64,000 nt of DNA from an uncultured Pseudomonadota bacterium (GTDB taxonomy: Bacteria; Pseudomonadota; Alphaproteobacteria; Rs-D84), in the NCBI GenBank assembly GCA_902793005.1, contig CADBBQ010000001.1, forward strand, positions 32,860 through 96,859. Direction: 5' to 3'. The notes under the pieces are model-generated. The model did no database searches. It had not been told where the DNA came from and saw only the letters and a program-made list of their open reading frames with translations. Both the position numbers and the translations under genes were made by a program. Below, piece after piece: positions 5,041 through 60,000 of the stretch. The first letter of the stretch is position 1. Each line of letters starts with the position of its first letter.

Positions 5041-7269
5041 ATGATAAAGAAAATATTATGTGCGATGTTGGGGCTATTATTCACGATATCTGCAAACGCG
5101 GCATGCAATTTATATACAACAACAAATAGTTCTGCCGGATACATTGATGGAAGTGGTGTTGTACAAAACGCGAGCAGTTATTTGGCAACGGATTACATTG
5201 CGGTTAACTCATCAACCGAATATACCGTTTATATCAAACAGAACGCTGCCATTAGCGGTCACGGGGTTCGTATTGCGTTTTATGATACAAACAAACAATT
5301 TATTTCTCCGCGCCTTGGTGGCGATGCCCCAAGTGCCGGTCAATATATATACAATTTAACATCGCCTGCAAATGCTAAATATATCAGAATGTCAACATAC
5401 GACGGTAATAGTGTTGTCGACAGAACAATAGTCCAGGGTCGATATACCGTGGACACAATCCCAACAAATATGTCGCAATGTGCGACGTGTGACGGGACGA
5501 TTGTGAATTATGTTTCTGCAACTGGAACCGTGTCGCAATCTGGAACTCCAACACCAGACAATCCGATTTATCCAACTTTCTATACCCAGGGCAATATGGT
5601 CCTGCGCAAAGTTGGCAATGTCGCAGATTCTTACGATGCGTCAACGGGTAAAATCACTCGTCGCGTCGGTGTTGCTGTGTTGGATGGTACGGAGAGATGG
5701 GGTGCTCACGCCAGTAACGCAGGTTGGTTTCAATTATCAAGTGATATTTTCCCAACAGATGTTAATACAGATGCATTAAGTACACACTATAGGCAATACA
5801 CACATAATCCATCAAGTATGGCCAATCAAGACATTTTATTTGGACGTCCAGACAGTAGCACAGGAAGAGTTGTTATACGTGATGCTATAAACTTTCCTGA
5901 TGTAGGTCTTGCGGATGATTTTAAATCCTGGCTAGCGCAACAATATGCTGCGGGAACGCCCGTGACGGTTTACTATCCGTTGAAAACGGAAACGACCGAG
6001 GATTGGCCGGCGTCTTACTGTGAAACGCCGATTAAAATCGCTACAACCAAATACAACGAAACTGCATTCAGTCCGCTGAATACGGCGTTGGCGAATGCGA
6101 TTAGTGTGGTGGATTCGGTGGTGTCAAACACGATAACCCAGGCGGCGAGCATCGCGACTTTGCAGGCACAAAAGCAAACGCGGCCGGCGAATGACACTTG
6201 TCCGGCGTACAAACAATGTTTATTGGTTGAGGATGAAAACGGTGCCCCGCACTGGTACGAAATCACCGACCCGTTCCGGGATTTCGTCCGCCCAATTATC
6301 GCGAACAATGTCAACGCGGCATCGTCGACATCCACCAATGGTTATACACAATTGGAATACATCGAATCAACCGGAACACAGTATATTGATACGGGGGTAC
6401 AAGCAACGGGTGATCTTGATATTAAAACAAGATTTAAAATAATATCATACGGCCCCCTATTTGGTACACGAGATGTTGCTACAGGAGCATCGAATAAATC
6501 GGTTTGGGTGGCAGCTTTGGACGGAAGAACCATTTGGTTATACAACAATAAAACTACACATAACCATTTGGAAAAATTAAATTTAGATCAATGGTATGAT
6601 GCAGATATAAACAAAGGCGTGTTATCTTTTAATGGCAATGAAGTTGCGTCGTATGAAACAGAAAATTTTACTGGTTCTGATATATTTCTATTTAATACAA
6701 ATGAGGCCAATGGCACTCTTGCAAGTGGGGCTTCTGTACAAATATCATATTTCAAAATTTATGATGCATCTGGCACCCTCGTTCGCAACTTTGTTCCAGT
6801 TGTTAATAATACAACCGGGAAAATTGGTATGTATGACACTGTCGGTGGGCGGTTCTATGGCAATGCGGCGACGTCGGGTGATGATTTCACCGCGGGTCCG
6901 ATTGTTGAAAACGATGCGGATGTTCCGGGTATGAGTTGGACCGCAACATGGGCGGCGGATGCATCCACGGGTGTTTCAGCCGGCACGGTGTACGGCATCG
7001 CCCGGTGTAATACCCACCCCTCAACGGCAGGTAGCATCATTACGGACACCGCCAGTACCGCATTTAACACACTGGGAAGTATTTGTCACTGTAAAATGAC
7101 ATCAATAGATTTCGAAGGCAGCATATCGGACACAAACACCGCAAAATGGGTGCATGTTGACCATGCAAACGGCGGAACAAAGGTATGTCTACAACAATGC
7201 AGCACATGGTGTCGCGGTTTTACAACAATGACCGAACGCAACAAACCGGTATTATCATCCGTATTGTAA
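5041..7269 (+). CDS. Secreted or lipoprotein paralog A (742 aa) of a two-member family; function unknown
   Basis: N-terminal signal peptide MIKKILCAMLGLLFTISANAAC. A central block (IKIATTKYNETAFSPLNTALANAISVVDSVVSNTITQAASIATLQAQKQTRP...CLLVEDENGAPHWYEI, YTQLEYIESTGTQYIDTG) is nearly identical to 37394-38899, while the N- and C-terminal parts diverge. C-terminal motifs are shared as well (GKIGMYDTVGGRFYGN vs GVVGMYDTDNGVFYEN). Confidence 0.7.
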   Translation: MIKKILCAMLGLLFTISANAACNLYTTTNSSAGYIDGSGVVQNASSYLATDYIAVNSSTEYTVYIKQNAAISGHGVRIAFYDTNKQFISPRLGGDAPSAGQYIYNLTSPANAKYIRMSTYDGNSVVDRTIVQGRYTVDTIPTNMSQCATCDGTIVNYVSATGTVSQSGTPTPDNPIYPTFYTQGNMVLRKVGNVADSYDASTGKITRRVGVAVLDGTERWGAHASNAGWFQLSSDIFPTDVNTDALSTHYRQYTHNPSSMANQDILFGRPDSSTGRVVIRDAINFPDVGLADDFKSWLAQQYAAGTPVTVYYPLKTETTEDWPASYCETPIKIATTKYNETAFSPLNTALANAISVVDSVVSNTITQAASIATLQAQKQTRPANDTCPAYKQCLLVEDENGAPHWYEITDPFRDFVRPIIANNVNAASSTSTNGYTQLEYIESTGTQYIDTGVQATGDLDIKTRFKIISYGPLFGTRDVATGASNKSVWVAALDGRTIWLYNNKTTHNHLEKLNLDQWYDADINKGVLSFNGNEVASYETENFTGSDIFLFNTNEANGTLASGASVQISYFKIYDASGTLVRNFVPVVNNTTGKIGMYDTVGGRFYGNAATSGDDFTAGPIVENDADVPGMSWTATWAADASTGVSAGTVYGIARCNTHPSTAGSIITDTASTAFNTLGSICHCKMTSIDFEGSISDTNTAKWVHVDHANGGTKVCLQQCSTWCRGFTTMTERNKPVLSSVL

Positions 7270-7282
7270 TGTCTTTACCAAA

Positions 7283-7312
7283 TAAAAAACATCCGGCAAC
7301 GGATGTTTTTTT
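7283..7312 (+). terminator. Rho-independent terminator
   Basis: aaaaaacatccggcaacggatgtttttttatg: the stem catccg/cggatg followed by a T-run. Confidence 0.55.
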
Positions 7313-7371
7313 ATGTTTGCTTTTGTTGTGTGATATTGCTATATTTTCTGCGTTGATATAAAGGCGGAAAT

Positions 7372-7878
7372 ATGAAGGTTGCTATTAAATATTTATCAAT
7401 AATTTTTGGTGTCATATTATTGGACCAAATTGTTAAATCTTTATTGTTATATCTGATTACGGGGACTGTGCCGGTGGCGGGTAATGCGTGGGGTATCGTT
7501 GGGTATCCGTATATTATGGCGCGCGTCACCGATTGGTTTAATATTGTGTTTACTTGGAATCCGGGAACATCGTTTTCTTTGTTCCGTGCCCTGGGCGAGG
7601 GCGCACCCTGGGTCATCGTTGGCGCAACCGGGGTGATTTGTGCGATGCTGGTTTATTATATGTTTTGGCGCGCCGGGAAAAACGAGCGGTTGCCGCTGGC
7701 ATTTATTATTGGTGGCGCAATTGGGAACTTAATAGACCGTGTGCGTTTTGGCGCGGTGGTTGATTTTTTGGATTTTCATATTGGCGGACTGCATTGGCCG
7801 GCATTTAATATCGCCGATATGTTTATTGTAATTGGTGTTGCGTTGTATATAATCAATATAACTTTTCGTAAAAAATAA
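7372..7878 (+). CDS. lspA: Lipoprotein signal peptidase (signal peptidase II)
   Basis: 168 aa with four transmembrane segments and the conserved NxGxxF/FNIAD motifs (WNPGTSFSLF; FNIADMFIVIG). Confidence 0.9.
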   Translation: MKVAIKYLSIIFGVILLDQIVKSLLLYLITGTVPVAGNAWGIVGYPYIMARVTDWFNIVFTWNPGTSFSLFRALGEGAPWVIVGATGVICAMLVYYMFWRAGKNERLPLAFIIGGAIGNLIDRVRFGAVVDFLDFHIGGLHWPAFNIADMFIVIGVALYIINITFRKK

Positions 7879-7889
7879 AGGGTAAAATA

Positions 7890-9458
7890 ATGGTTGAGTA
7901 TCTGAATAATAATTCTGGATTTGCGGCGTGGAATGCGGCACAAAATCGCGGTGCACCGCGTTCGCGTTTTTCGAATTTTTTATGGTGGACATTTTTGTTT
8001 TTGGTTGCGTGGTGGATTGTTGGATTGTTTATGTCACCTGCGCAAAACGAAAATAAAAACGCGCCGGCGGCGGATGCGTCAATTTTGGTGGATGTGTCAA
8101 ATGTCCCGGTGTATGAAATTTCATCTGACACGATTGCGGCAAATGTTCGTGGCCTGCGCGTGTCAAATATAGATTTAAAAGATTTTGCAAAATCGGGCGA
8201 TGACAATACGCCGGTACGAATGCTGGGCGATGATGGATTTGTTGAAATTGGCCTGACGTCAAACGGCACGACCGCGCCAAATGCCACGACAAAATGGCAA
8301 AAATCTGGGGATAAAATGGTTTGGCGCAATGGCGACGGTGTGGAATTTTCTCGCACAATTACGGTTGATGGATATTTAATTCGCGTATCAGACACGGTTA
8401 AAAATAATACGAAAAACGGAATTTCTGTGGCGCCATACGCACGCGTGTTGCACAAGGGCGATGCATCGTCGTCGGCCGGCGTTTATACCGGTGCCGTTGC
8501 ATATGTAAACCAAGATGTTGAAAATAACGCGTGGCGTGATTTGGATAAAAAATCATACGCATACACAACGACAAATGGATTCGTCGGATTTGCCGAGCAA
8601 TACTGGGAAACAATTGTGCAAACCGATGCGCCCGATCAAACAATGCGTATGAAAAAGCAGGGCGATTTATACGAGGCCGCAACCGTTGCCGCGCCGGTAA
8701 ATATTGCGGCGGGAAAGACACAGACAATCACAACAAATGTTTTTGCCGGCCCGCGCGATGCAAATGTGTTGCGCACGGTTGACGCGACAATTAACGGTAT
8801 TGGCGAAACCATAGATTATGGTTGGTTTTGGTTCTTGGCACGGCCGATGTTGTGGTCAATAAATATGATTCATAAATTTGTGATGAATTATGGTTTGGCG
8901 ATTATAATCTTTACGATTTTAATTCGTATTTTGATGTGGCCATTGACGCGTAAATCATATACTTCGATGATTGCAATGCAGAAAATGCAGCCTGAATTGC
9001 AACGCGTGCAAAAATTATATGCTAATGACAAACAACGTATGCAAATGGAAATGATGCGTGTGTATCAAACGCACAAAACATCACCTATGTCGGGATGTTT
9101 GCCGATGTTGATTCAGATTCCAATTTTCTTTGCATTGTATAAAGCGTTATTGATTTCGGTGCAAATGCGTAATGCGAACTTTTTATGGATACACGATTTG
9201 GCGACGATGGATCCGTATTTTATATTGCCGATTTTAATGGGCGCAACAATGTGGTTGCAACAATATCTGCAACAAAATAAAACAGACACGAAAAACAAAA
9301 ATGATATAACGGCTCAAACCGCCCAGGTTATGAAATGGATGCCGATATTGTTTGCAATAATGTTTGCGTGGATGCCATCCGGCCTGGTGTTGTATTGGAC
9401 TGTATCGAATATATTTGGTATCGGCCAGATGATGTGGTTAAAACACAAATCAAAATAA
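7890..9458 (+). CDS. yidC: Membrane protein insertase YidC
   Basis: 522 aa: an N-terminal transmembrane helix, a large periplasmic domain, and the conserved C-terminal 60-kDa-IMP core (YGLAIIIFTILIRILMWPLT...MQKMQPELQRVQKLY...MSGCLP). Confidence 0.93.
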   Translation: MVEYLNNNSGFAAWNAAQNRGAPRSRFSNFLWWTFLFLVAWWIVGLFMSPAQNENKNAPAADASILVDVSNVPVYEISSDTIAANVRGLRVSNIDLKDFAKSGDDNTPVRMLGDDGFVEIGLTSNGTTAPNATTKWQKSGDKMVWRNGDGVEFSRTITVDGYLIRVSDTVKNNTKNGISVAPYARVLHKGDASSSAGVYTGAVAYVNQDVENNAWRDLDKKSYAYTTTNGFVGFAEQYWETIVQTDAPDQTMRMKKQGDLYEAATVAAPVNIAAGKTQTITTNVFAGPRDANVLRTVDATINGIGETIDYGWFWFLARPMLWSINMIHKFVMNYGLAIIIFTILIRILMWPLTRKSYTSMIAMQKMQPELQRVQKLYANDKQRMQMEMMRVYQTHKTSPMSGCLPMLIQIPIFFALYKALLISVQMRNANFLWIHDLATMDPYFILPILMGATMWLQQYLQQNKTDTKNKNDITAQTAQVMKWMPILFAIMFAWMPSGLVLYWTVSNIFGIGQMMWLKHKSK

Positions 9459-11532: not shown

Positions 11533-11563
11533 AAATGCCGGGATTTCCGGCATTTTATTTAAA
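11533..11563. terminator. Bidirectional hairpin terminator between convergent genes
   Basis: aaaatgccgggatttccggcattttattt: the stem gccgg-atttcc-ggc is flanked by A and T runs on both strands. Confidence 0.5.
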
Positions 11564-12425
11564 ATATTTTTATTTTAAATATCGGTAAACATTCAAATAA
11601 GTAAACTTTATTGTTTTTCACTTTTAATAACGGAATAAAGTTAAACAAACGTAATCTAAATCGTGTCGTCGAATTGCCACGATATTCAGCGCTTTTACAA
11701 AGTTTTCTCATAAATGGGTGTTTATCGCAAATTTCTAGTTGAACACAATCGTGCGCAAAAGCCATTTTTTGTGCTTGTTTATTTGTTGTGTTGCTTGCGA
11801 ACCAACGATAGTTAACCAAGGCTTCTTGAAAATTATAAAAGTGTGTAACATCCATTAATCTGGCCCATAACCTATAATCTTCGGCAGGACTATAATACTC
11901 TTCGTATTCTATATTGTTTTCTGTTAATACGGATTTTCTAATCATTGCCGCCGTATGGGCAATATAACAATCTTCTGTCAGCCATATTTTTATATCAGTA
12001 TCTTGCTCTGGGGTTTTGTGTAATTTGTTGCTTTCTTCAAAATACTGTAACCATCCAGATACAACACCAACATACGGGTGATTGTCTAAATAATTAACTT
12101 CTTTTTCTAGCCTTTTTTGTATAGAAATGTCATCGTGATCAAATATCGCAAGATATTCACCTTTGGACATTTTTATTAATTTGTTTCGGGAATATGTAAT
12201 ACCCATATTTTTTTTGTTTTTCGCATATTTTATACGGTTGTCGCGTTCGGCATATTTTAATACAATTTTTTCTATGCGTTTGTTGTCTGGGCTATCATTA
12301 AGTATTAAAAATTCAAAATCAGTAAAAGTTTGTTTTAAAATACTTTCAATCATATTTTTTAAATGAACAGGATTGGTATTATAAATAGGTGTTAGCACAG
12401 AAACTTTTGGTGTTTTTTTTATCAT
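11559..12425 (-). CDS. Family 2 (GT-A) glycosyltransferase
   Basis: The N-terminus (VSVLTPIYNTNPVHLKNMIESILKQTFTDFEFLILNDSPDN) is the classic GT2 nucleotide-sugar binding region, with DxD (FDHDD). 288 aa. Very AT-rich. Confidence 0.8.
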   Translation of the reverse strand: MIKKTPKVSVLTPIYNTNPVHLKNMIESILKQTFTDFEFLILNDSPDNKRIEKIVLKYAERDNRIKYAKNKKNMGITYSRNKLIKMSKGEYLAIFDHDDISIQKRLEKEVNYLDNHPYVGVVSGWLQYFEESNKLHKTPEQDTDIKIWLTEDCYIAHTAAMIRKSVLTENNIEYEEYYSPAEDYRLWARLMDVTHFYNFQEALVNYRWFASNTTNKQAQKMAFAHDCVQLEICDKHPFMRKLCKSAEYRGNSTTRFRLRLFNFIPLLKVKNNKVYLFECLPIFKIKIF

Positions 12426-12428
12426 ATT

Positions 12429-13394
12429 TTATAATCCTTTGTTTGAAAAAATACGTTTTATTACATTTTGTATAAAATGTTTCAATGTATATGTTTTGTC
12501 GTGTTTATAATTAATTTTTGTTATATATTTTTTATCAAAAATGCGATTTATTTCGTTATAATAATCATTGTTGTTAGTGTATTCGTGCGGCAAAAATAAA
12601 ATGTTTAAAAAAGTATTTATAATTAAATCGCAATCTTCTTTACTTTGTTGTTTCGCAATTTTATAAATACTGTGCAATATATAAATATCATCACTTACAC
12701 GTTTGTCTTGGTGTATTGGGTTGTGAATTATGCTGCAGGGGTTTGCACGGTAATTATAGAAAACAGAATTTTCAAAAAATATTTTTTTAGATTTTATAAA
12801 TGTTTTTAACAAAACGACATTGTCTTCATAAAACCTTCCGCGTGGAAATATAATATTATTGAAAAGTTCTTTTTTAAATAATTTGGACGCAACGCTACCA
12901 TTTGAAATGTATTTATATTTTAATCGAGATTTTTTTGCCATCATCCTGGGATGTTTGTCTAAATTAGTATATTTACCATTCTCATATAATCTCAAAATAC
13001 CACACGATATATCGCAATCGTATCTTAAACAATTTTCATATAATTTTTGATAAAAATCATCGGATACCCAATCGTCGCTATCTAAAAAACCAATGTAGTC
13101 GCCGGTTGCGTTTTTTAATCCAACATTTCTGGCACAAGACAGCCCAGAATTCTGATTCAATTTTATATACTTAATTCTGGGGTCTTGTTGTAAACGCGTC
13201 AGGTATTTAATTGTATCGGTATCAGAAGAGCAATCGTTTACAACAATAATTTCTATTTCTTTAAGAGTTTGGTTAAACAATGAATTTAACGCCTGTTCTA
13301 TGAACTCTGGTTTGACGTTATATACAGGTACAATAACAGAAACTTTTGGATTCTGGGATTTCGGTTGATTTAATATATTTATGTTTTTCTTCAT
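12429..13394 (-). CDS. Family 2 (GT-A) glycosyltransferase
   Basis: VSVIVPVYNVKPEFIEQALNSLFNQTLKEIEIIVVNDCSSD followed by DSDD. 321 aa. There is a 3-nt gap to the downstream GT2, so the two are probably an operon. Confidence 0.8.
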   Translation of the reverse strand: MKKNINILNQPKSQNPKVSVIVPVYNVKPEFIEQALNSLFNQTLKEIEIIVVNDCSSDTDTIKYLTRLQQDPRIKYIKLNQNSGLSCARNVGLKNATGDYIGFLDSDDWVSDDFYQKLYENCLRYDCDISCGILRLYENGKYTNLDKHPRMMAKKSRLKYKYISNGSVASKLFKKELFNNIIFPRGRFYEDNVVLLKTFIKSKKIFFENSVFYNYRANPCSIIHNPIHQDKRVSDDIYILHSIYKIAKQQSKEDCDLIINTFLNILFLPHEYTNNNDYYNEINRIFDKKYITKINYKHDKTYTLKHFIQNVIKRIFSNKGL

Positions 13395-13666
13395 AATAAT
13401 GACTCCGTGAAAAAAAGACCGTTAAATTTACGGTCGGGCATTTCCAAAATCATAGTACGAAGATTCTCTGCGCTTTTGGTAGAACCTGTTATATAGCGAC
13501 AGATGGCCCGACCACAACAGTCAGGCATAACGATGCGAAACATCATTTGCAAAAAAAACTTAACGATGCGTTTCGCACCGCGTACTATAAGACCTTGGAG
13601 GGCCAAACCCAAATTTAGGATTCACGATAATTATAAACAATAAAATGCGAAAAGTAAATACATTAT

Positions 13667-14686
13667 TTAAAAATTAACCTTTAATGCGGTGGCCAAGAAC
13701 GGCGTTTTTGTCGTCAATCCAACCGATGTCCATAATTCCATATTCTCGCTGTATTTATATCGGAAAGACGCAATTCCGGTATGGTCGTAATACTGTGGTA
13801 AATCGCGATGCCATATTCCGGTTTTCGAATACATATATGACAAAGATACAGAATAATTCAATATGTCATAACTGACGCCACTGCCAAATGATATACCGTC
13901 AGACGGCGCACCAACAGGATTCCGGTCATATATCGCAACGGCGGATGTACCGAAAATCCAACTGTTATATTGTATGTTAAATCCGACAGATGTTTGTGCG
14001 CGCCAATCGGCCGTCACATCCGCCAAATACGATGCAGGACTGTATCCGTCGGGTTTTTCCATAAATGACGCGCCCAACGAGAGTGCCGATTTTAATTTGC
14101 CATTTGGAAATCTGAATTTAACACCCGCATCCAATGCATAATCAAATTCATCGCCAAACGCCGCCGCCGACACACCGTATTGACCAACATTCGTTGGAAC
14201 ACTGACCAAATTTATGCGCGGCGTGCCGTCCCCAGACGAAACCGATGTGTTCGGTATAACATTTCCGCGTGGCGAAATGCGTTTATAAAACAAAGGTTTA
14301 CGGTTCACTCGCAATCCGCCGACATCGGGCACGCCAACGCTTAATTTGCGTGCGGCGGAATCGGTTAATCCAACCTCGATACGGCCAAAATCTTGGTTTT
14401 CATATAACGCGAATGCGTCGTGCGATATGTCGTGTCCGGCCAAGGCTTCTTCGTCCCAACTGTACACCAAACCAAATGTTTGACCGCGTGCCACGGCGTA
14501 ATTATACTGCGCGCGCAAATCAAAATCGCCCAAGAACAAAGTGTTTTTGAATTTGGGTTCGATAACACCGGCCGTCCCCATTGCGGTAAATTTAAACGCA
14601 CTGCGGCCATTGTTATATTGCAACGCGTGCCCCGGGGCAATAAACGCAAATCCGAACATCAATCCGCATAACAAATATTTTTTCAT
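13667..14686 (-). CDS. Outer-membrane beta-barrel (porin-like) protein
   Basis: Signal peptide MKKYLLCGLMFGFAFIAPGHA, alternating amphipathic strands rich in Y/G/S, and a C-terminal aromatic residue (...ALKVNF) typical of BAM substrates. Confidence 0.55.
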   Translation of the reverse strand: MKKYLLCGLMFGFAFIAPGHALQYNNGRSAFKFTAMGTAGVIEPKFKNTLFLGDFDLRAQYNYAVARGQTFGLVYSWDEEALAGHDISHDAFALYENQDFGRIEVGLTDSAARKLSVGVPDVGGLRVNRKPLFYKRISPRGNVIPNTSVSSGDGTPRINLVSVPTNVGQYGVSAAAFGDEFDYALDAGVKFRFPNGKLKSALSLGASFMEKPDGYSPASYLADVTADWRAQTSVGFNIQYNSWIFGTSAVAIYDRNPVGAPSDGISFGSGVSYDILNYSVSLSYMYSKTGIWHRDLPQYYDHTGIASFRYKYSENMELWTSVGLTTKTPFLATALKVNF

Positions 14687-16339: not shown

Positions 16340-17077
16340 ATGCGTAAATATGTGTTGATTGTTTTATGTGTAATGTTGGTGGCGGCGTGTGATAAACACG
16401 ACCCAATTTTGCCTGGGTTTCGCACAGAAATTTTTAACACAAATACCAACCAAAAAATATTAAACGCGTCTGTTAAAAATTTGCCAGAATCCGCACCGAC
16501 GCGCAATGTTGCGGAATGTAAATATACAATCGATGCAACAAACACAGTACGCGATGATGCGGGGCGTAAAATTTTTGTTGGTTTCCCATCACCAAATTCT
16601 GTGGATATTGAAACAAAACCGATTTGTGATGGCGGATATGTTTATGCCGGATTAAATACCGGTAATATTGTAAAAATCGCACCAAAAAAACGTGATATTG
16701 TTTGGATGACGGATGTATTTGCCGAATCGAATATGACGGGCGGTGCGGCAACGGTGGATATTGTTGCACCATTGGTAATTGACGGAAATGATATTTTTGC
16801 CGCCGGTATGGGTGACGCATTTTGTCGGATAAATGCAATCAATGGTAACAAAAAATGGTGTGCATCTGTGGGAACGCGTTTTCCGTTTATCGTGTTATCA
16901 AATGTTGCATATATAATGGGTATGGACGATATGTTATACGCGGTGCGAACATCGGATGGGGCGATATATTGGCGCACAGAAGTGATAAAAAAAACGGCGG
17001 CTCCGATATATGAAAACAAACAAATCAGAATTGGTAAAAAACGATTCGATGCCGAAACCGGTGACCAGATTAAATAA
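16340..17077 (+). CDS. PQQ-repeat beta-propeller lipoprotein, short BamB-like
   Basis: Lipoprotein signal MRKYVLIVLCVMLVAAC. PQQ-like repeats are present (DGGYVYAGLNTGNIVKI; NDIFAAGMGDAFCRINAINGNKKW; DMLYAVRTSDGAIYW). At about 245 aa it is well short of typical BamB. The start is the internal ATG of ORF 16268-17077. Confidence 0.5.
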   Translation: MRKYVLIVLCVMLVAACDKHDPILPGFRTEIFNTNTNQKILNASVKNLPESAPTRNVAECKYTIDATNTVRDDAGRKIFVGFPSPNSVDIETKPICDGGYVYAGLNTGNIVKIAPKKRDIVWMTDVFAESNMTGGAATVDIVAPLVIDGNDIFAAGMGDAFCRINAINGNKKWCASVGTRFPFIVLSNVAYIMGMDDMLYAVRTSDGAIYWRTEVIKKTAAPIYENKQIRIGKKRFDAETGDQIK

Positions 17078-17435
17078 AAAAATCTGACATTTTTATGTCA
17101 GATTTTTTTTTTATATACCGAAACAATGCATCCGGTGTTTGAATCCATAATTTATTTAATCCGATTGCGTATTTTACATAATTCACACAAGTTGATTTAT
17201 TCGGATTAAAAATCAAGAACGGCACATCTATACGAATAAATCGCCATCCGTATTTTTCTAATTGTTTAATACCGCATCGATTTATTGAAATATATGCGAC
17301 ATTATTGCGCCCCACAAATTGATGCAGAATAAATTTATTTTTGTGTGATGTAATAATTGCGCAATGTTTAAAATTTCGACACAGCAATCGAACAATTGGT
17401 ATATGTGTTTTATATGAAAATCCAACAAGAATCAT
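17070..17435 (-). CDS. Hypothetical protein (121 aa)
   Basis: ORF only; no recognisable motif. Lies downstream of the virB10-like gene. Confidence 0.3.
   Translation of the reverse strand: MILVGFSYKTHIPIVRLLCRNFKHCAIITSHKNKFILHQFVGRNNVAYISINRCGIKQLEKYGWRFIRIDVPFLIFNPNKSTCVNYVKYAIGLNKLWIQTPDALFRYIKKKSDIKMSDFFI
17077..17112. terminator. Bidirectional hairpin terminator
   Basis: aaaaaaatctgacatttttatgtcagattttttttt. Confidence 0.55.
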
Positions 17436-17457: not shown

Positions 17458-17802
17458 TTAATCAATCCATCCATTTTTACGTGCCGCATTTTCTATTACA
17501 TCCATTGCGCAATTCCACACATACGCATCGTGATTTTCCGACCAGATATATTGATGTGGTGCGCGCCGCCTGTCGCCAAATTTTTTCATAACCGCCAATT
17601 GTTCATCGGTCAATCGCCCCGCCAAATACAGTTTTGTAATCAATGTTTCCACATCCAACAATTCACATACACGCCGTGCGCCCGCGCGGTGATTTTGTAC
17701 CAACCCAGATTGCACCGATTTTGAATACACAAACCAGAACCACATCTGTTCGGCATTGTGAAATTTTTCCGCATTATCGTTAATGTTTTTAACAGTATTC
17801 AT
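17458..17802 (-). CDS. Hypothetical protein (114 aa)
   Basis: ORF only; no recognisable motif. Confidence 0.3.
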   Translation of the reverse strand: MNTVKNINDNAEKFHNAEQMWFWFVYSKSVQSGLVQNHRAGARRVCELLDVETLITKLYLAGRLTDEQLAVMKKFGDRRRAPHQYIWSENHDAYVWNCAMDVIENAARKNGWID

Positions 17803-18020
17803 TTTTTTCTCCTTTTATGTTGTTTATTTTATAAACAAAAACAAGAACATTTGCCAAATATTACAACCCGGGGTTGAAATTCGAATCGAAAATTATATTG
17901 ATTAGCAATATTTTCCTATTTTTATTCGAATCGACGCATATTCTGTTTTTGTTATGTTTATTAAATAAAAAAAACACACATCGTTTGATGTGTGTTTTTT
18001 TACTGCGTATTTCCCTCGCA

Positions 18021-20477
18021 TCAGTTCATTTCTAATGGTGGGAAACAATCGCCACTGCCCGCCGGACAGCACGCAAATGGGTATTCCGAATCAGGTCCCA
18101 TTTCCGTATAAACTTCGCCCGGACAGCACCCGTTTGCATCAGGTGCCGCACCATCGCAATCCAAACTGCCAACCGTGTCGGCACCTGGGGTGGCGGCGGG
18201 TTGATTAAATGGATTGACGATGACATTTGTTTCATTACCGTCGGCATCTTTTTCGTATTTCAATCCCAAAATATCTTTATTGTATGCCTTGGTTTGTTCT
18301 TCTGTGCGGTTGTCGGCCGTTCCATATGTGTTTTGGAAAGCCTGTTGTTGACTGTTATAATACGCATCCTGCTTTGCCATATTAATCGCCGTATAGTTCT
18401 TGGCCTGGCAATAAGCCAACACCGTTCTGTAATCGTATCCCGCGTTTGATATTTCCAAAGCGGCATTATCTTTAATGCCCCAAACGCCCTTGGTATCTTG
18501 GCTGCAATATGGGTCCAAGTTAAACGCACGAACCTGACCAATCCAGGAAGAATCTGTTTTATCAACGGTCATTTTGCCTTTGACATCTTTCCATTCGCGA
18601 CGTTTTTTATCACTATATTTTGCAAAGGCGCATTTCTTACCCGCGTTTGGCCCGTTTTCATCGCCACAGGTTGCAATCAAATCAACCGGTGAATATACAG
18701 TAATGCGAGTGCCTGCGGCAATTGAAAATGGTGGAACCGTATTATCCAACGCATCAACCATCAATTTTTGTGCAACCTTGTTCCAGGCGGAAATAACCTC
18801 GTTCTTGGCCAATTCGGACGACCGTACCGTCCCCGATTGCACGACCGTGTTATTATCTAAATCAATTTGATTTACAAATGTATCTGCAATCGGTGCAATC
18901 ATATTCACCGCCGCCGGAATCACCGCCGTCAGCAATGGCATAACCATTTGTTCGATATAATCGGTACTGCCATAACCCGGGACACCAACACGCCCCTGGG
19001 AATCCGCAGAATAGGGGTCTTGGTCTTCGTTTTTGAAATTGAATTCAACGCCGTCTGGACGAATAAATTGATACCATTTAATTTCCATACGACCAATGGA
19101 TTTATATGGGCCGGGTAAATTACCACGCAGATAGCCCAACAACAAAGTCCCGGTTGGAATAATGACCGTGCGGCCATTATCGGAATAAACATTTCTGTCC
19201 ACGGTTGCACGAACAGGAATGCCACTGCCGCCTTTGCAATTGCCGTCGTTATCACAATCATACACGGACGGATCGGCGCGAACCTCGGACACTATTGTTG
19301 CCGGAATTGGTTTGAATTGACGCAATATAAATGTTCTGTCATATGGCATACTGGAATAAACCGATTCTGCTTCCTCGGCCGAACCCTTTAATGCATCTGC
19401 GTTCACAGAATTTACGATAAAATTCATACCACCTTCGGTTGGATTCATTGTCTTTTTTAAATTATTCATCCCGCTGGGTTTATATCCATCAGACACCGCC
19501 GTGCGTGTCGCGACAGCCGTCGATTTTGAACGCAATTTTGGTACCGAATTTGCGTTAACCGATGTTCCACGATGATCGGCATCCGTCCCAATTTTGCGCC
19601 CACGACCATCAATACTGGTTATAATCCCCGTATCCGGATTATAAATACCCGTTGGCTTGTTGCATTCGGTATCTGAAAAAGGATGAAATTCATATCGTCC
19701 CGATTTTGGTTTTATCCATCCGATTTGTGTTCCCGACATATCATATCCCGGCATCGCAAAATCAGAACACTTTTCAGGTGCACGCCGCCGTGGTGTTTCG
19801 ACCGGTGTGTTATTTTCAAAAATATTTTTATTCCCACCAACAATTGGTTCAGGCTCATCAAAATCTTCGTCATCAATCAGTTCGTTATCATCGGCAACAA
19901 TGTCATCATCAACCGGTATCGGTTGGGCCACTGGCTTTTTTTCTGGGGCAGGTTCTGGTTTTTTTGTGGCTCCAACGGCACTGACCGGGATAACAATTTT
20001 CGATGTTTGTAAATTCGTATCGCGTGAATCGTTTTTATCATACCATTCAACCAACAAAGTCACTTCGCCCGTTGTGTCCGCCGCACCCGGGGTAAATGTC
20101 ACATCAACCGAACACGGAATATCTTTATTCACCGGTTGATTAGTGCACCCGGCCGTATTCGCCGAAAACCCAGGTACCGAATTTTGCACACTAACCGAAT
20201 CAACAATTGCATCATATGTTGCGTTTATACGGAAAACTTGGCTGCGCTTTGTGCCAATAGGTGTTTTTGAAAAATCAACATTGTTTGGTGTTATCATCAA
20301 TGTGACATCGCGGTTTTGATGCACCACGGTTGGATTATTGACCGGGCGTGACCGTCCCACCAATAAAAACAACAAAATCAATACCACGACAAACGCCGCC
20401 ACCAATAACATCCAGCGAACCGCCTGGGGTGTTGATTCAAAGGTTTCTTTGATTTTGTCTTTGATTGTATTCGCCAT
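18021..20477 (-). CDS. VirB10/TrbI/ComB10-family protein with an N-terminal TM anchor, Pro-rich linker and a cysteine-rich C-terminal extension (818 aa)
   Basis: A transmembrane helix (MLLVAAFVVVLILLFLLV) and a Pro-rich segment (KKPEPAPEKKPVAQPIPVDDD). The conserved VirB10 C-terminal beta-barrel region (PVRATVDRNVYSDNGRTVIIPTGTLLLGYL...IGRMEIKWYQFIRPDGVEFNF...PFSIAAGTRITVYSPVDL) occupies roughly residues 400-620. About 200-250 further residues follow, ending in CDGAAPDANGCCPGEVYTEMGPDSEYPFACCPAGSGDCFPPLEMN. Confidence 0.8.
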   Translation of the reverse strand: MANTIKDKIKETFESTPQAVRWMLLVAAFVVVLILLFLLVGRSRPVNNPTVVHQNRDVTLMITPNNVDFSKTPIGTKRSQVFRINATYDAIVDSVSVQNSVPGFSANTAGCTNQPVNKDIPCSVDVTFTPGAADTTGEVTLLVEWYDKNDSRDTNLQTSKIVIPVSAVGATKKPEPAPEKKPVAQPIPVDDDIVADDNELIDDEDFDEPEPIVGGNKNIFENNTPVETPRRRAPEKCSDFAMPGYDMSGTQIGWIKPKSGRYEFHPFSDTECNKPTGIYNPDTGIITSIDGRGRKIGTDADHRGTSVNANSVPKLRSKSTAVATRTAVSDGYKPSGMNNLKKTMNPTEGGMNFIVNSVNADALKGSAEEAESVYSSMPYDRTFILRQFKPIPATIVSEVRADPSVYDCDNDGNCKGGSGIPVRATVDRNVYSDNGRTVIIPTGTLLLGYLRGNLPGPYKSIGRMEIKWYQFIRPDGVEFNFKNEDQDPYSADSQGRVGVPGYGSTDYIEQMVMPLLTAVIPAAVNMIAPIADTFVNQIDLDNNTVVQSGTVRSSELAKNEVISAWNKVAQKLMVDALDNTVPPFSIAAGTRITVYSPVDLIATCGDENGPNAGKKCAFAKYSDKKRREWKDVKGKMTVDKTDSSWIGQVRAFNLDPYCSQDTKGVWGIKDNAALEISNAGYDYRTVLAYCQAKNYTAINMAKQDAYYNSQQQAFQNTYGTADNRTEEQTKAYNKDILGLKYEKDADGNETNVIVNPFNQPAATPGADTVGSLDCDGAAPDANGCCPGEVYTEMGPDSEYPFACCPAGSGDCFPPLEMN

Positions 20478-20508
20478 AACTATCTGTCCGTATTTTGTTT
20501 ATCACATA

Positions 20509-22026
20509 TTATTGGATTCTGACCACGCGGCATCCCGATACTTGGAATTTCATCAGTTTATCGCACAATGTTTGTGCTTCATCAATGTCCGCCAATGGGC
20601 CAATGCGCAAACGATACATTGCGGCCGACGATACGCCCGAACCTAAATCGCCCACACCTTCGGTATCAATGGCAAAGAACACTTTGTTTTGATATGGAGT
20701 CAAAATTCCAGCACCACCATCGCCACTGAATTTAACTAACAAATCGTTCCAGTATTCTTCCAACGCCTTGGGTGATTTGTCAGACGCAAATTCCACCGCA
20801 ACCCCCGATTGATTAGATTTAATCAACGGAATATTTGATTGTGGCAAATACGAACCGGCTGTTTCGCGCACGGTTGGCATCATCGATGTCCCACCAGATG
20901 TTGTGGAAACATTTGTCGTATTTGTTGACGCACCGTATCCAGCCGGCATATAAACGCCCGTTGCCATTGGATTTGGTACATTTGACATATACATCGGTGT
21001 CGCGGTGTAATCCATTGTGCCACCATACATCGCCGACATATCTGCATCATACGCGATATTGTTTAATGATTGTCCAGACATCATACTTTGCGCAACATTC
21101 GCCTCGGCCAACGCCATAACCGATGCCGTGTCCGCAATCAAGAACGGTTTTTCACGTTTTTTGATACAAACGATGCGTTGACCACTGCGCAACACCATAT
21201 CACCCACAGCCTCGACAATTAATAATCTGCCGTCTTGACCATCGGTGCGGAAACCAACCGGGGATTCGCCACCTTCGATTAATAAAGACACCACCGGTCT
21301 TTGTGTCATTGCGATAACCTTGTCGCCAAAGTCAATATATGTAAATATTTTATCACGCCACACGCGTTCCGGCGCAATTACATAATCGTCCGGGTTTGGA
21401 ACAAAAATATCCAAATCAAATCTGAATTCAGACGGGTCAATTTTCATAGATTTAATCCACGCATAATCTTCGCCGTCAACGCCAACGGTATTCGATGCCG
21501 GCGCCGCCTTTTTAAATATAGAATTCATCCCCCCAGATTGGCGCTGTGGCGTGGCGGTCGCATTTGCAACCGTTGCACCATTGTCCAACACAATATCCAC
21601 CTGGGAATAAGAAATTTCCGAAGAATCTATTGTCCCGGGACTGGACAGGTAAAATATGTATTTATTTCCTGATTGTCCCGTCACAATCATATTTGTATCG
21701 GATTCGCTTGCCTCCATTGGGGTCACATAAAATGTTCGGTCGCCTTGGGTTGCCTCGATTTGATACAAAGATTGGTCGCCAACAACGGCATCAGCAATTT
21801 GTTCGCCGTTTGGCAATGTCACCATTGTCACCATACCATTGCGTAATTTTAAAGGCAAAACCGTCCCCGTTGACCACGCCAATTGTGCGTATCCGGGTTT
21901 CGTACTGCCGGCGGCCATATTTGCGGTTGGGTTTTCCCACGCGCGTTGTACAGCGGCATCGGCGACGCCCACAGACATCAAAATCAACAAAGACACTAAT
22001 CCATTGATTTTTAAAACTTTTAACAT
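20509..22026 (-). CDS. VirB9/TrbG/ComB9-family protein with a C-terminal low-complexity linker and SPOR-like domain (505 aa)
   Basis: Signal peptide MLKVLKINGLVSLLILMSVGVADA. A VirB9 N-domain (GDRTFYVTPMEASESDTNMIVTGQSGNKYIFYLSS) and a VirB9 C-domain (KIFTYIDFGDKVIAMTQRPVVSLLIEGGESPVGFRTDGQDGRLLIVEAVGDMVLRSGQRIVCI). Then about 200 extra residues: a S/T/M/G/Y-rich linker and a terminal SPOR-like segment (...YRLRIGPLADIDEAQTLCDKLMKFQVSGCRVVRIQ). Confidence 0.7.
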   Translation of the reverse strand: MLKVLKINGLVSLLILMSVGVADAAVQRAWENPTANMAAGSTKPGYAQLAWSTGTVLPLKLRNGMVTMVTLPNGEQIADAVVGDQSLYQIEATQGDRTFYVTPMEASESDTNMIVTGQSGNKYIFYLSSPGTIDSSEISYSQVDIVLDNGATVANATATPQRQSGGMNSIFKKAAPASNTVGVDGEDYAWIKSMKIDPSEFRFDLDIFVPNPDDYVIAPERVWRDKIFTYIDFGDKVIAMTQRPVVSLLIEGGESPVGFRTDGQDGRLLIVEAVGDMVLRSGQRIVCIKKREKPFLIADTASVMALAEANVAQSMMSGQSLNNIAYDADMSAMYGGTMDYTATPMYMSNVPNPMATGVYMPAGYGASTNTTNVSTTSGGTSMMPTVRETAGSYLPQSNIPLIKSNQSGVAVEFASDKSPKALEEYWNDLLVKFSGDGGAGILTPYQNKVFFAIDTEGVGDLGSGVSSAAMYRLRIGPLADIDEAQTLCDKLMKFQVSGCRVVRIQ

Positions 22027-22051
22027 CCCTTTCTTCCTTTGTTTTTTTATT

Positions 22052-22813
22052 TTAATTTGCTTGGCGTGTCCAATTTAACGGATCATATTGTTCTTGGTCC
22101 AAGATTTTGCCATCTGGGCCGATAACATTATATTCACTGACACGGAAACCCAACGGGTTTTCCATACGTTCCGCCCAACGAATTGCATTGTTTGCATTAG
22201 ATTCCAATTTCACGCGCAATCTGTATGGTTTACGATATTCCATATCCCCCAACGGCCCATAATTGCACACATATGTAAAACTGACATCATATGTATCGGC
22301 GGTATTTGATGCGACCGTATCAACCACAGAATAACTGGCCGGATATTCAACCGTGCACCGGACATCAAAAGCCTCGTCTAAATCTTGACGGATAACATTT
22401 ACCATATCTGTCATAACGAATTGTCCAAAAACCGTATCTGTTGAACGATTTTTGATAACCCCATCGTCGCTGTACGCCCATTTTGCACGCATAATCGCCA
22501 AATCAGGCACGATTTCATTACGTTCACGAACATATTCGCGAATAAATTGTTTTTTGTAATCGTCCAAATTTTCCGGCATCTGGGTCAACGTCAGTTCTTT
22601 ATCAGTTAAATTTTGCGATGTTAAAAAGAACACCTGGGGACGATTTAACGGGAACATTTTATCCAATGTCCAAACCAATACCCCCAGCACGACCAAGGCC
22701 GTTGCCATAACAAAGGTCATTAATCTAGATATCAAAACTGGCGGTTCTATGCGTTCTGGCACAGGTTTTTCTCCCCCTTTTATTAAATGATTGTAGAAAA
22801 AATATTTATACAT
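22052..22813 (-). CDS. VirB8/ComB8-family protein
   Basis: Short cytoplasmic N-terminus, one transmembrane helix (LMTFVMATALVVLGVLVW) and a periplasmic NTF2-like domain carrying the VirB8 signature NPLGFRVSEY. ORF 22052-22819 begins with TTG; an ATG two codons in (22813) is the likelier start. Confidence 0.75.
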   Translation of the reverse strand: MYKYFFYNHLIKGGEKPVPERIEPPVLISRLMTFVMATALVVLGVLVWTLDKMFPLNRPQVFFLTSQNLTDKELTLTQMPENLDDYKKQFIREYVRERNEIVPDLAIMRAKWAYSDDGVIKNRSTDTVFGQFVMTDMVNVIRQDLDEAFDVRCTVEYPASYSVVDTVASNTADTYDVSFTYVCNYGPLGDMEYRKPYRLRVKLESNANNAIRWAERMENPLGFRVSEYNVIGPDGKILDQEQYDPLNWTRQAN

Positions 22814-22997
22814 ACGCAAGTAAAAAATATATAAAACTTATCTGAAAAGTGCGCCCTGAAAACTGAACGCCGGGGCAAGTTTTTACTTGCGTTAAAATAA
22901 TTAAATCTTTATAATATTTTTCGCTTGATTTTTGCCAATGTTGTGCTAGCCTTGGCAAGAATATCGGTTATATCGTGCGCAACGGGTTTGTCTATCC

Positions 22998-23071
22998 AGG
23001 GGCTTAGTTCAACGGTAGAATATCGGTCTCCAAAACCGCGGATGAGGGTTCGATTCCTTCAGCCCCTGCCA
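22998..23071 (+). tRNA. trnW: tRNA-Trp (anticodon CCA)
   Basis: aggggcttagttcaacggtagaatatcggtctCCAaaaccgcggatgagggttcgattccttcagcccctgcca: a cloverleaf with 7-bp acceptor stem, anticodon loop ctCCAaa and encoded CCA. Its position before secE-nusG is canonical. Confidence 0.9.
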
Positions 23072-36192: not shown

Positions 36193-37393
36193 GTGTTCAG
36201 AGTTCAAAGTACAAAGCACAAAGTACAATTATGGCAGGATAATTCATTCTCGGACATTCTCCTTCTTTATGAAAGAAGGAGTACCCGAGCAAGCATCGGC
36301 GCGCGAGGGGGAGGTAGTTGTGCACGGCGACAAAGTGAAACGGCGTCGCCATAAAAAAAATTAAAAATCACAACTGCCCCGTCTGACTCGTTGACACTCG
36401 TCATCCACCCCTTCTTTTCCCGTCCCCGCACAGCGGGGCCGCGGTTGAAAAGACGGGGAATATCCAATAATAAATAATTATGCCACAACTGAACTTTGTA
36501 CTCTGTACTCTGAAAACTGCACAACACCCGTTGTGCAAAAAAATATTGCACACGCAATAAAATTTTTTCTATAATACCTTTGTGAATCCGAAACAAGGGA
36601 GTTGGATTCCGGTGGCTTTAGCAGGCCTAAAAACTCCGGTGCAAAGTTTGCATCGTGACTCTCCCAATCTGAAAAACCGATTCGATAATCGGGATGATTG
36701 TGTTTGTTGCATCCATATTTTGCACCGACATTTTTATCACGGTGCCGGAGAAAATTTTTAAATCCCCCTGATGAAAATGTAAATTTTTCCCAGACTGAAA
36801 CCCCCATTATAACATTTTATGTTTGTCGGGGTGCCGCGTACAGCAATGTATGTGGGGTCATTGAGTTTTTGATTTGCTAACACCCCGGCCGCATTCCCGT
36901 TTTTGGATTTGGCGGTGTTTTTTATTTTTTCGCGACTGCGAAAAAATAACAGAGTTCAGAGTGCAAAGTTCAGAGTTCAGTTGATGAATTATTGAATTTG
37001 ACTGTGAACCCAGCCCCGGACATTCCCCGTCGCCAATTTTTACCGAGGTAAAACCGAGGATTAAAAATTGAGCGCCGCGCCGTAGCATTGCGCGTTTTGG
37101 GGGAACGAACCTTGTTTTGTCGGCGAAGGCGGGCAAACCCTCGCGTCAGCACAAAAAGAAGGGGTGGCACGAAACCGTCAGGTTGAGTGACGGGGTAGTT
37201 GTGAAAAAATTACCGCACGGTGGCGTTTTGTTTTGGGAAAATTAAAGGCTCCGAATTCAATTCCCTCGACACAACTGCGTTGTGTCTGCGGGGCACTCCT
37301 CGCTCACGACCAGTTGTGTTTAAACAAAACCAGGCTTTTTGTCCCGAAACAAATCCACCGCACGAACAAAAAGAAAAGAACGGGAGAAAAACT
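36181..37393. repeat. Copy B of the conserved non-coding leader/repeat region (see 4201-5040), longer and with extra internal repeat units
   Basis: Shares the cttctttatgaaagaagg hairpin, acggggtagttgtg units (three, one inverted), the TTGCAC...TATAAT promoter, the conserved block ggtgccgcgtacagcaatgtatgtggggtcattg, and gaacgggagaaaaactATG. Confidence 0.7.
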
Positions 37394-40581: not shown

Positions 40582-40612
40582 AAACCCCGTTTCCGGGGCT
40601 TTATTTTTAGTT
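40582..40612. terminator. Bidirectional terminator between mraZ and the convergent cysteine-rich protein gene
   Basis: aaaaccccgtttccggggctttatttttag. It is preceded by a 3x tandem repeat of aaaaatttagcaaaa at 40495-40540. Confidence 0.55.
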
Positions 40613-55998: not shown

Positions 55999-56083
55999 AT
56001 AAAAACATCAACCCCGATTGCATCGGGGTTTTTACATAGGTTTTGGTTCTTGGTGCATATTGATTTGCCTTGTGTAAAACGAT

Positions 56084-56557: not shown

Positions 56558-56606
56558 TTTTTGTTTTGCCAAGGACAAACATCGCCGCAATTGCGGCGAT
56601 GTTTTT

Positions 56607-58925: not shown

Positions 58926-59014
58926 TTTGTCCCCCTGAAAGTGTTATTGATAAATAATATATAATACAAAAATACACTTTTGTCAATATATAATATAAAG
59001 ATACAGTTTTTATT

Positions 59015-59614: not shown

Positions 59615-59831
59615 TGTAAAATCCTTTGTTTAATAGAAATTAATCTAATAAACAATTGTGGACAATTTTTACAAACACAAATTAAAAAAATATTGGAGAT
59701 ACCGGAAATTAATTGTTTTTTGCATAAAAAAACGCCCATTGGGCGATTTTATAATTAAATTCGGAGACATAACCACACAATTTCAAAAAAGAAAATGCGG
59801 CCCGCCACCCGAAGCCCCCCAGGGCGAAACG

Positions 59832-59907: not shown

Positions 59908-60000
59908 AATGTGAACAAATCATATATTTTTTATTTGATAATTTCAAGTGTTTTTTTATGCGTGCTTGCTTTTCGTAAAATCGTTGTTAAAATGATGCTT

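Follow-up and report, generated by a model that had tools for sequence, protein, structure and literature searches.

The subject of this report is a set of three consecutive minus-strand genes that encode VirB8-, VirB9- and VirB10-like proteins of a type IV secretion system (T4SS). These genes lie in a stretch of 64,000 nucleotides (nt) from an uncultured alphaproteobacterium (GenBank assembly GCA_902793005.1, contig CADBBQ010000001.1, forward-strand positions 32,860 to 96,859), and the whole of this stretch is called the window below. The trio is stand-alone at the local scale, i.e. in the window and within ±10 kb of its counterparts in 80 species. The first-pass annotation had called it stand-alone, which holds over this range and not as a genome-wide statement, the scope being local: the window covers ~7% of the genome and ~20 kb were inspected per relative. 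With a probability of about one half, we regard the trio as the envelope-spanning scaffold of a T4SS that came from an rvh-like ancestor, has its other parts encoded elsewhere in the genome, is anchored to the cell wall by a SPOR domain on VirB9 and serves contact-dependent exchange. New are the family of VirB9-SPOR fusions, the lineage-specific Cys-rich tail of VirB10 and the reduction to VirB8-VirB9-VirB10 in a genome of less than 1 Mb; the parts themselves are of known kinds.

Named homologues and loci from the GTDB, belonging to Enterousia and related metagenome-assembled genomes (MAGs) of gut and rumen, place the host of the three genes in Candidatus Enterousia, order Rs-D84. VirB10 was found in at least 279 GTDB species, and contexts of ±10 kb each were taken from 80 of them, all Enterousia-type gut or rumen MAGs, which with the window makes 81 loci. 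Among the genomes with homologues is one closed chromosome, 958,618 bp long. Enterousia, a member of the order Rs-D84, has genomes of 0.75-1.0 Mb; its tricarboxylic acid cycle and respiration are absent, as are amino acid, nucleotide and fatty acid biosynthesis, its standard transporters are few and its lifestyle is probably partner-dependent (PMC12306168). No description of a T4SS in Rs-D84 was found in a literature search.

The three family assignments proposed in the first-pass annotation held, as each protein scored above its Pfam cutoff: VirB8 with E 2.8e-7 (31 bits, the cutoff being 23.2), VirB9 with PF03524 (CagX/VirB9) over residues 48-290 at E 2.2e-21 (77 bits against 34.2) and VirB10 with PF03743 (TrbI) over residues 391-596 at E 7.7e-15 (55.7 bits against 35). 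The motif 'NPLGFRVSEY' was confirmed in the translation of VirB8, which is predicted to be a bitopic inner-membrane/periplasmic protein. The scores against NCBIfam equivalogs were 52.8 for VirB9 (cutoff 217.7), 56.3 for VirB10 (220) and 44.5 for ComB10 (NF038092; 300), and since these are about a quarter of the cutoffs or less, VirB9 and VirB10 are divergent members of their families.

Homologue searches gave 1,589 proteins for VirB9 and 891 for VirB10, all from uncultured Alphaproteobacteria. Lengths were read from the best 120 of each set; nearly all of these VirB9 proteins measure ~500-530 amino acids (aa), i.e. they are full-length, and most of the VirB10 proteins 770-850 aa. The ratio of nonsynonymous to synonymous substitution rates (dN/dS), computed pairwise against four relatives, was 0.09-0.21 for VirB8 and ~0.07-0.13 for VirB9 overall, with 0.10-0.23 in its linker and 0-0.16 in its SPOR segment. 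For VirB10 it was 0.003-0.07 in the barrel, 0.11-0.26 in the tail and 0.11-0.29 in the N-terminal half (residues 1-390). Every segment of the trio is under purifying selection, and the open reading frames (ORFs) of the trio are intact in almost all of the 81 loci. An origin of the C-terminal tails in frameshifts, a possibility raised in the first-pass annotation, or in pseudogene decay is ruled out by the full-length closest homologues together with this selection.

Added domains of VirB9 and VirB10

Residues 185-320 of VirB9 are nearly invariant in the alignment. The fusion of a SPOR domain to its C-terminus, noticed at first reading, is borne out by the modelled fold and by PF05036 matches in relatives. 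In the window protein the Pfam match covers 31 residues and is borderline, scoring 21.1 bits where the cutoff is 21; outgroup VirB9 proteins scored 25, 22.2, 21.7, 19.1, 18.8 and 17.3 bits against the same cutoff, and many close homologues carry a precomputed PF05036 match. Residues 388-505 were modelled with AlphaFold 2 from a 22-sequence alignment including outgroups. The model has the topology beta-alpha-beta-beta-alpha-beta, with a predicted local distance difference test (pLDDT) of 74 and a predicted template modelling score (pTM) of 0.67, and it decided the question in favour of a genuine SPOR fold. The first beta strand has an invariant Glu ('AVEF' / 'IELG'), and further features of the domain are a short additional helix and the Cys pair C488/C499. 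Sequence-profile searches of the PDB with the VirB9 C-terminus gave no meaningful match, and a literature search found no publication linking SPOR to VirB9 or any T4SS component, rvh descriptions included. SPOR also ends the D,D-carboxypeptidase at 28-972 (E 3.8e-6), as had been noted before.

VirB10 consists of a short cytoplasmic N-terminus, a transmembrane helix, an immunoglobulin (Ig)-like domain, a Pro/acidic linker, a mid-module with two Cys, the TrbI barrel and the Cys-rich tail. The transmembrane helix and the Pro-rich linker are readable from a 24-sequence alignment, in which the barrel and its hydrophobic helix-loop-helix are near-invariant; the barrel, known from sequence alone, weakly matches the PDB sequences of CagY, ComB10 and TrwE. 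The matches of the Ig-like region are weak and below cutoff (NCBIfam choice_anch_D, E 2.8e-4; Pfam ASH, E 0.057). This region is also present in the outgroup loci L092 and L095, and the mid-module in L091, L092 and L095. The extended Cys-rich tail reported earlier is real, with CC pairs and ten Cys that are invariant across 24 homologues (C604, C616, C658, C690, C774, C784, C785, C803, C804 and C811); PDB sequence-profile searches with the tail gave no meaningful match. The window VirB10 shares just the barrel with the giant VirB10 proteins of the sister lineages described below, and the tail is specific to Enterousia.

A search of 1.84 billion representatives with VirB9 returned 441 matches, some with 35-41% identity over the full length, SPOR included. 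An outgroup profile led to a second family of at least 1,407 long VirB9 proteins, of which those listed measure 508-690 aa and many have SPOR. Both C-terminal additions had been thought foreign to canonical systems. For SPOR this does not stand: the domain is family-wide, and its occurrence in more than 1,400 long VirB9 proteins of complete T4SS clusters means that homologues with the same tail exist, which in part refutes the idea. For the Cys-rich tail, found only in Enterousia, it does stand.

Sister clusters, local gene complement and competing explanations

In the sister loci L082, L086, L087, L093 and L094 the genes follow the order VirB4, unannotated ORFs, VirB8, VirB7-like, VirB8, VirB9-SPOR, giant VirB10 and VirB11. 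The VirB7-like protein is a lipoprotein of 59-66 aa with the motif 'SPCAC..LPEW', the VirB10 proteins (L082-L087, L093, L094) measure 1,397-2,831 aa and in one case more than 4,294 aa, and the four to seven ORFs between VirB4 and VirB8 are without a Pfam family and have at most one N-terminal hydrophobic segment each. L083 and L084 have the same layout, VirB4 not being within the 10 kb reached; L084 ends inside VirB10, so VirB11 is beyond reach there. L085 has a split VirB7-VirB8-VirB9-VirB10-VirB11 cluster, flanked by a ComM-like Mg-chelatase-family gene and comEC (7164-8792, 18865-21015). No VirD4 or relaxase was seen among the sister clusters inspected. Minus VirD4, the rvh-like order VirB8-VirB7-VirB8-VirB9-VirB10-VirB11 is found in L082, L083, L086, L093 and L094, and this order, with VirB4 upstream, supports the kinship with split rvh-type loci that the first-pass annotation had suggested. 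In the window, where VirB8 is single and VirB7, VirB11 and VirD4 are missing, the rvh order is not found. By tblastn the window VirB8 is closer to the sister copy B8b than to B8a; the Enterousia VirB8 is orthologous to the VirB9-proximal copy of the sister clusters.

The loci can be arranged in a natural reduction series, which runs from the full cluster through L095 and L092 to Enterousia. L095 has VirB7, two VirB8-like genes, VirB9, upstream cluster ORFs and a VirB10 of 681 aa with the Ig-like domain and the mid-module, and no adjacent VirB11. In L092, VirB8-VirB9-VirB10 lie beside tsf, and VirB10 (733 aa) has 30% identity to residues 51-607 of the window protein and no Cys tail, while L091 has VirB9-VirB10 beside hpf. 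The fusion of VirB9 to SPOR is thus ancestral to the whole family, and the short VirB10 with Ig-like domain and mid-module arose within the reduced branch. L095 also has a 283-aa ORF (8241-9092, plus strand) between VirB9 and VirB10, whose motif 'GRDGDKYIFNLQS' resembles the VirB9 N-terminus; as in rvh systems, this ORF could be a truncated paralogue of VirB9. Tandem proteins of 400-460 aa with type-IV-prepilin-like N-termini are encoded near VirB9/VirB10 in L074 (12127-15994, minus strand) and L091 (6835-9535, plus strand). The copies from Enterousia and from the outgroup are homologues (E ~1e-11), and one of these proteins weakly matches PilV/Shufflon_N (E 1e-5).

Apart from the trio, neither Pfam searches nor a Walker A scan revealed any identifiable T4SS gene, ATPases included, in those ORFs of the window that have at least 110 aa, and tblastn with sister VirB4, VirB11, VirB7 and cluster ORFs gave nothing in the window; the absence of an ATPase had been stated before. 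Searched by tblastn with sister VirB4, the reduced outgroup loci L091 and L092 were negative as well, and homologues of VirB11, VirB7 and the cluster ORFs are likewise missing from these two and from the 81 Enterousia loci. As to VirB7, no lipobox ORF and no 'SPCAC..LPEW' motif was found in the window or the 81 Enterousia loci, tblastn being negative there too; the motif search recovers 4 of the 4 sister VirB7-like genes tested. Unannotated ORFs of 742, 783, 772 and 559 aa were considered as divergent VirB4 or VirB6 and rejected, as all of them lack a Walker A motif and none has more than a single hydrophobic segment (the 772-aa ORF has none at all).

The order rpoB..nusG / VirB8-VirB9-VirB10 / orf114-orf121 is constant across the window and the 80 other loci. 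It persists although the surroundings are rearranged, upstream in L010 and L011 and downstream between L002-L013 and the others, and the housekeeping synteny is kept even between species with a VirB10 identity of just 45-50%. The guanine-plus-cytosine (GC) content of the trio is 0.46, similar to the flanks. Since this synteny is constant and withstands rearrangement, the trio is a vertically inherited core locus and no tRNA insertion. The adjacency to tRNA-Trp pointed out in the first-pass annotation is real (22998-23071, plus strand, followed by secE, nusG, rplK, rplA, rplJ, rplL, rpoB and rpoC); what it reflects is conserved housekeeping synteny, and a mobile element at tRNA-Trp is ruled out by the unchanging gene order in 80 species.

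According to the reading we prefer, an ancestral cluster of at least 12 genes, an rvh-like T4SS of related uncultured Alphaproteobacteria, would have been pared to one VirB8-VirB9-VirB10 operon. VirB8 would be an inner-membrane and periplasmic assembly factor, VirB9 would form a periplasmic/outer-membrane ring, and VirB10 would bridge the inner to the outer membrane, with its antenna helices forming the outer-membrane pore. VirB9 and VirB10 would assemble the outer-membrane core complex without VirB7; a VirB7-less outer-membrane complex of VirB9 and VirB10 has been modelled for Wolbachia (bioRxiv 10.1101/2025.08.29.673095). SPOR may reach the glycan strands on its ~100-aa flexible linker and tether the VirB9 ring to peptidoglycan, and this anchoring probably positions the core complex at the septal or new-pole wall. 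The disulfide-rich tail of VirB10 may stabilise or decorate the O-layer, and SPOR and tail together could be a structural substitute for the VirB7 lipoprotein that was lost. The scaffold would work in a T4SS whose VirB4-type ATPase and inner-membrane parts lie elsewhere in the genome, as in Rickettsiales, where split T4SS loci are the rule (PMC2653234). It is the retention of VirB8, the split loci of L085 and Rickettsiales and the presence of VirB4 in every characterised T4SS that argue for partners encoded elsewhere. Such a machine would mediate the contact-dependent import or export of macromolecules needed by a partner-dependent, biosynthetically poor cell.

Several observations weigh against this reading. 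VirB4, VirB11, VirD4, VirB6, VirB7, VirB2 and VirB3 were not found in the window or within ±10 kb in the 80 species, and no pseudogene remnants of sister-cluster genes were found in the window, the 81 Enterousia loci, L091 or L092. VirB11 lies directly 3′ of VirB10 in every sister locus that reaches far enough and VirB4 is usually contiguous; therefore dispersal in Enterousia needs at least two breaks, and wholesale loss of the missing T4SS genes is equally simple. As regards wall anchoring, canonical SPOR domains have Gln at the beta-1 position where VirB9 has Glu, and hhalign of the VirB9 C-terminus with SPOR of the DacC-type D,D-carboxypeptidase from the same genomes gave a probability of 5% at a very low effective number of sequences (Neff), a result superseded by the structural evidence for the fold. 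Also, T4SS goes unmentioned in a metabolic survey of Rs-D84 genomes (PMC12306168). The trio may then be truly stand-alone, all T4SS ATPases and inner-membrane parts being lost, and form an ATPase-independent, peptidoglycan-anchored trans-envelope conduit or scaffold, possibly as an outer-membrane gate for another machine, such as a DNA importer of the ComEC type or a PilV-like type IV pilus, or for the uptake of partner-derived macromolecules. We hold this to be possible and rather unlikely. It is consistent with the local absence of other T4SS genes and their remnants in the window and 83 reduced loci, with a coordinated loss that took VirB7, one of two VirB8 copies, the ORFs of the cluster and the adjoining VirB11, and with the remodelling of VirB10, which lost the giant N-terminus and gained the Cys-rich tail. 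The extremely reduced genome with few recognisable transporters, the sets of VirB8-VirB9-VirB10 or VirB9-VirB10 in at least three lineages and differing contexts, and the homologous PilV-like prepilin genes beside VirB9-VirB10 in L091 and near the trio in L074 point the same way. Nevertheless, a VirB4 ATPase is established knowledge for every T4SS characterised so far (PMC12857230), the retained VirB8, as canonical bridge to the inner-membrane complex, suggests inner-membrane partners, the absence is seen just in ~7% of the genome and ~20 kb per relative, and split loci exist in L085 and Rickettsiales. The bolder form of the idea, in which Enterousia and the lineages closest to it have got rid of all T4SS ATPases and inner-membrane components and use VirB8-VirB9(SPOR)-VirB10 alone as a motorless peptidoglycan-anchored conduit, we consider unlikely; such a conduit might be energised solely via the inner-membrane anchor of VirB10 or gate a ComEC importer or PilV-like type IV pilus.

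DNA uptake in the manner of ComB appears improbable. The scaffold would then bring environmental or partner DNA into the periplasm, for use in transformation or as a supply of nucleotides, with ComEC taking over as in Helicobacter. The lack of VirD4 and relaxase in the sister clusters inspected, the missing nucleotide biosynthesis of Rs-D84, the NCBIfam ComB10 match (E 1.1e-11) and the competence role discussed for rvh systems (PMC2653234) would fit, as would the L085 cluster between the comM-like gene and comEC; but that adjacency is seen in one locus only, the window has no competence gene, and ComB10, with 44.5 bits, stays far short of its cutoff of 300 and also scores lower than the generic VirB10. 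Membership fails because ComB needs VirB2-4 and VirB6-10 homologues, ComB4 among them, and only VirB8-VirB10 are seen here; the first-pass description of ComB as a VirB8/VirB9/VirB10-only architecture was mistaken in this respect (PMC12857230). The incomplete gene set, the tRNA neighbour and the ongoing reduction of the genome might also bring to mind a non-functional relic of a degraded T4SS, or the remnant of a conjugative or integrative element at tRNA-Trp. This is very improbable and effectively refuted by conservation and selection, with intact ORFs in almost all of the 81 loci and dN/dS well below 0.3 in every segment. The same housekeeping synteny at 45-50% VirB10 identity, a GC content like that of the flanks and a conserved promoter-like block and Shine-Dalgarno sequence speak against it as well, and no integrase, relaxase or direct repeats were found at the locus.

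Enterousia is widespread in gut and rumen and presumed to live off a partner (PMC12306168), and a strongly conserved envelope-spanning channel encoded beside the ribosomal/RNA-polymerase gene cluster is a prime candidate for partner exchange. The large undescribed alphaproteobacterial T4SS family with a SPOR-fused VirB9 ring suggests a simple mechanism of wall anchoring or of septal or polar placement, and from the reduction series one can learn which parts a T4SS is able to do without. A true absence of VirB4 would challenge the view that this ATPase is needed by every machine derived from a T4SS, and a motorless trio would be the first T4SS core complex to work without it.

Transcription unit and surroundings of the trio

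The TTG at 22819, taken mechanically as the start of virB8, is almost certainly wrong and the in-frame GTG at 22762 is most likely the true one, because the Shine-Dalgarno sequence AAGGGGGAG sits 8 nt before it, homologue alignments open at about residue 20 of the mechanical ORF, and AAGGGGGAG and TCTACAATC are conserved across species. Further upstream, TACTTGC is found at the fixed position -60/-61 in 23 of 37 species. The inverted repeat that had been described as spanning the virB8 start is a real and perfect 13-nt repeat (arms 22814-22826 and 22880-22892), whose proximal arm overlaps the -35-like hexamer. It does not span the GTG start and is no conserved property of the system, because the distal arm occurs in just 8 of the 37 species; a conserved regulatory hairpin is ruled out, conservation being confined to the promoter-proximal arm.

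The terminator 20 nt after the virB10 stop indicates that virB8, virB9 and virB10 form a single transcription unit with its own promoter-like block (Table 1). Behind a 218-bp gap, orf114 and orf121, which the first-pass annotation had overlooked, form a separate unit, which ends at a second, bidirectional terminator at 17076-17109 at the end of orf121. Both genes accompany the trio in ~78 of the 81 loci and are absent from L070 and L074. Neither has a relative in Pfam or the PDB, and Pfam scans of family members gave no consistent family. They are syntenic neighbours, and it is uncertain whether they belong to the system.

The rest of the window holds housekeeping genes, namely recR, ksgA, a kefB-like gene, lspA, yidC, lpxD, a gene for an rpoH-like sigma factor, a bamB-like gene, plsX, genes for an M13 peptidase and an MltB-type SLT protein, proS, mdh and lgt. 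Two paralogous secreted proteins without a Pfam family (5041-7269 and 37220-38899, plus strand) have a common module '...IATLQAQKQTRP...LEYIESTGTQYIDTG', and copies of such proteins lie directly upstream of virB8 in L010, L011, L020, L046 and L052. A 783-aa secreted Cys-rich protein with an S/T/A/R-rich N-terminal region is encoded at 40607-42958 (minus strand; no Pfam family). GC dips to 0.37 at 56000-60000, which may be a small acquired islet with a 772-aa ORF without Pfam family (56607-58925, minus strand); a 199-aa ORF at 59015-59614 (minus strand), a serine recombinase by eye only, adjoins tRNA-Thr (59832-59907). GC reaches its minimum for the window (0.317 at 12-14 kb) in 11559-14000, where two family-2 glycosyltransferases are encoded, and beside it lies a 339-aa signal-peptide protein without Pfam family that is possibly located in the outer membrane (13667-14686, minus strand). 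Of two adjacent ORFs at 47322-48768 (plus strand), the second (48232-48768) has a match to Pom (PF17251, E 1.6e-9), a family of outer-membrane proteins from Protochlamydia; in an alphaproteobacterium this is unusual.

Table 1. Positions of the trio, its protein segments and the adjoining features in the window.
Feature	Position	Strand	Remarks
virB8-like ORF	22052-22819 (mechanical); probable gene 22052..22762	-	236 aa from GTG
virB9-like gene	20509..22026	-	505 aa; signal peptide, N-terminal domain and CagX beta-sandwich, linker, SPOR
virB10-like gene	18021..20477	-	818 aa
VirB9 CagX/TrbG core	21157..21885	-	residues 48-290, PF03524
VirB9 low-complexity S/T/M/G/Y/N linker	20827..21126	-	~residues 301-400; variable, gap-rich alignment columns
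VirB9 C-terminal SPOR (modelled)	20512..20805	-	~residues 408-505; beta-alpha-beta-beta-alpha-beta
VirB10 Ig-like (choice-of-anchor D / ASH-like), periplasmic, putative	20073..20300	-	residues 60-135
VirB10 mid-module	19563..19775	-	~residues 235-305; invariant C237, C272, GWIKP, PTGxY
VirB10 TrbI beta-barrel	18678..19307	-	Pfam TrbI; antenna helix-loop-helix ~residues 505-575
VirB10 C-terminal tail, Enterousia-specific	18024..18677	-	residues 601-818; ten invariant Cys, two CC pairs
Promoter-like block and Shine-Dalgarno sequence upstream of virB8	22763..22826	-	TTGCGT-18 nt-TACAAT; TCTACAATC, AAGGGGGAG conserved
Distal arm of 13-nt inverted repeat	22880..22892	-	paired arm in 8/37 species
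Intrinsic terminator	17968..18001	-	15-bp stem and T-run, 20 nt past virB10 stop; strong
orf114	17458..17802	-	small, cytoplasmic-type, conserved; 55-68% identity among relatives
orf121	17070..17435	-	small, conserved; invariant C19, H24, C83 (alignment)

Comparison with known systems

The rvh systems of Rickettsia, Wolbachia and Anaplasma resemble the trio in being alphaproteobacterial, chromosomal, vertically inherited and housed in reduced genomes. With the sister lineages they share the order VirB8-VirB7-VirB8-VirB9-VirB10-VirB11 and the duplicated VirB8 (PMC2653234). The likeness extends to loci that can be split and to VirB7, which can be missing, as in Wolbachia wMel (bioRxiv 10.1101/2025.08.29.673095). 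Unlike rvh, the window contains just one VirB8, VirB7, VirB11 and VirD4 are not adjacent to the trio, and no VirB4 or VirB6 was found in the stretches searched. Its VirB9 differs by the linker and SPOR, and its VirB10 has the Ig-like domain, the two-Cys mid-module and the Cys-rich tail instead of an expanded antenna projection.

The minimal outer-membrane core complex is defined as VirB7/VirB9/VirB10 (PMC12857230). With the core of the A. tumefaciens VirB, pKM101 Tra and R388 Trw systems the trio shares the CagX domain, the TrbI barrel with its helix-loop-helix, and the transmembrane helix and Pro-rich linker of VirB10. It differs from them in that no VirB7 lipoprotein was found and in that VirB9 is ~200 aa and VirB10 ~400 aa longer. 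Helicobacter ComB is likewise chromosomal, works without VirD4 and VirB11 in cooperation with ComEC, and has in ComB10 a weak match to the window VirB10. We know of no SPOR or Cys-rich extensions on ComB9 or ComB10. ComB consists of ComB2-4 and ComB6-10, homologues of VirB2-4 and VirB6-10 (PMC12857230), whereas no ComB4, ComB6 or ComB7 is present at our locus.

The SPOR domains of FtsN, DamX, RlpA and CwlC, which bind septal peptidoglycan, belong to division proteins or hydrolases, whereas here the domain is fused to a secretion-ring protein. The VirB9 domain also departs from them in its beta-1 Glu, its extra short helix and the pair C488/C499. Legionella DotK, which is OmpA-like, offers a parallel in the idea that the outer-membrane complex is fastened to the wall, although the fold is SPOR in the one case and OmpA-like in the other. 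Moreover, DotK is a separate subunit, listed among the components of the outer-membrane complex (PMC12857230), and not a fusion to VirB9.

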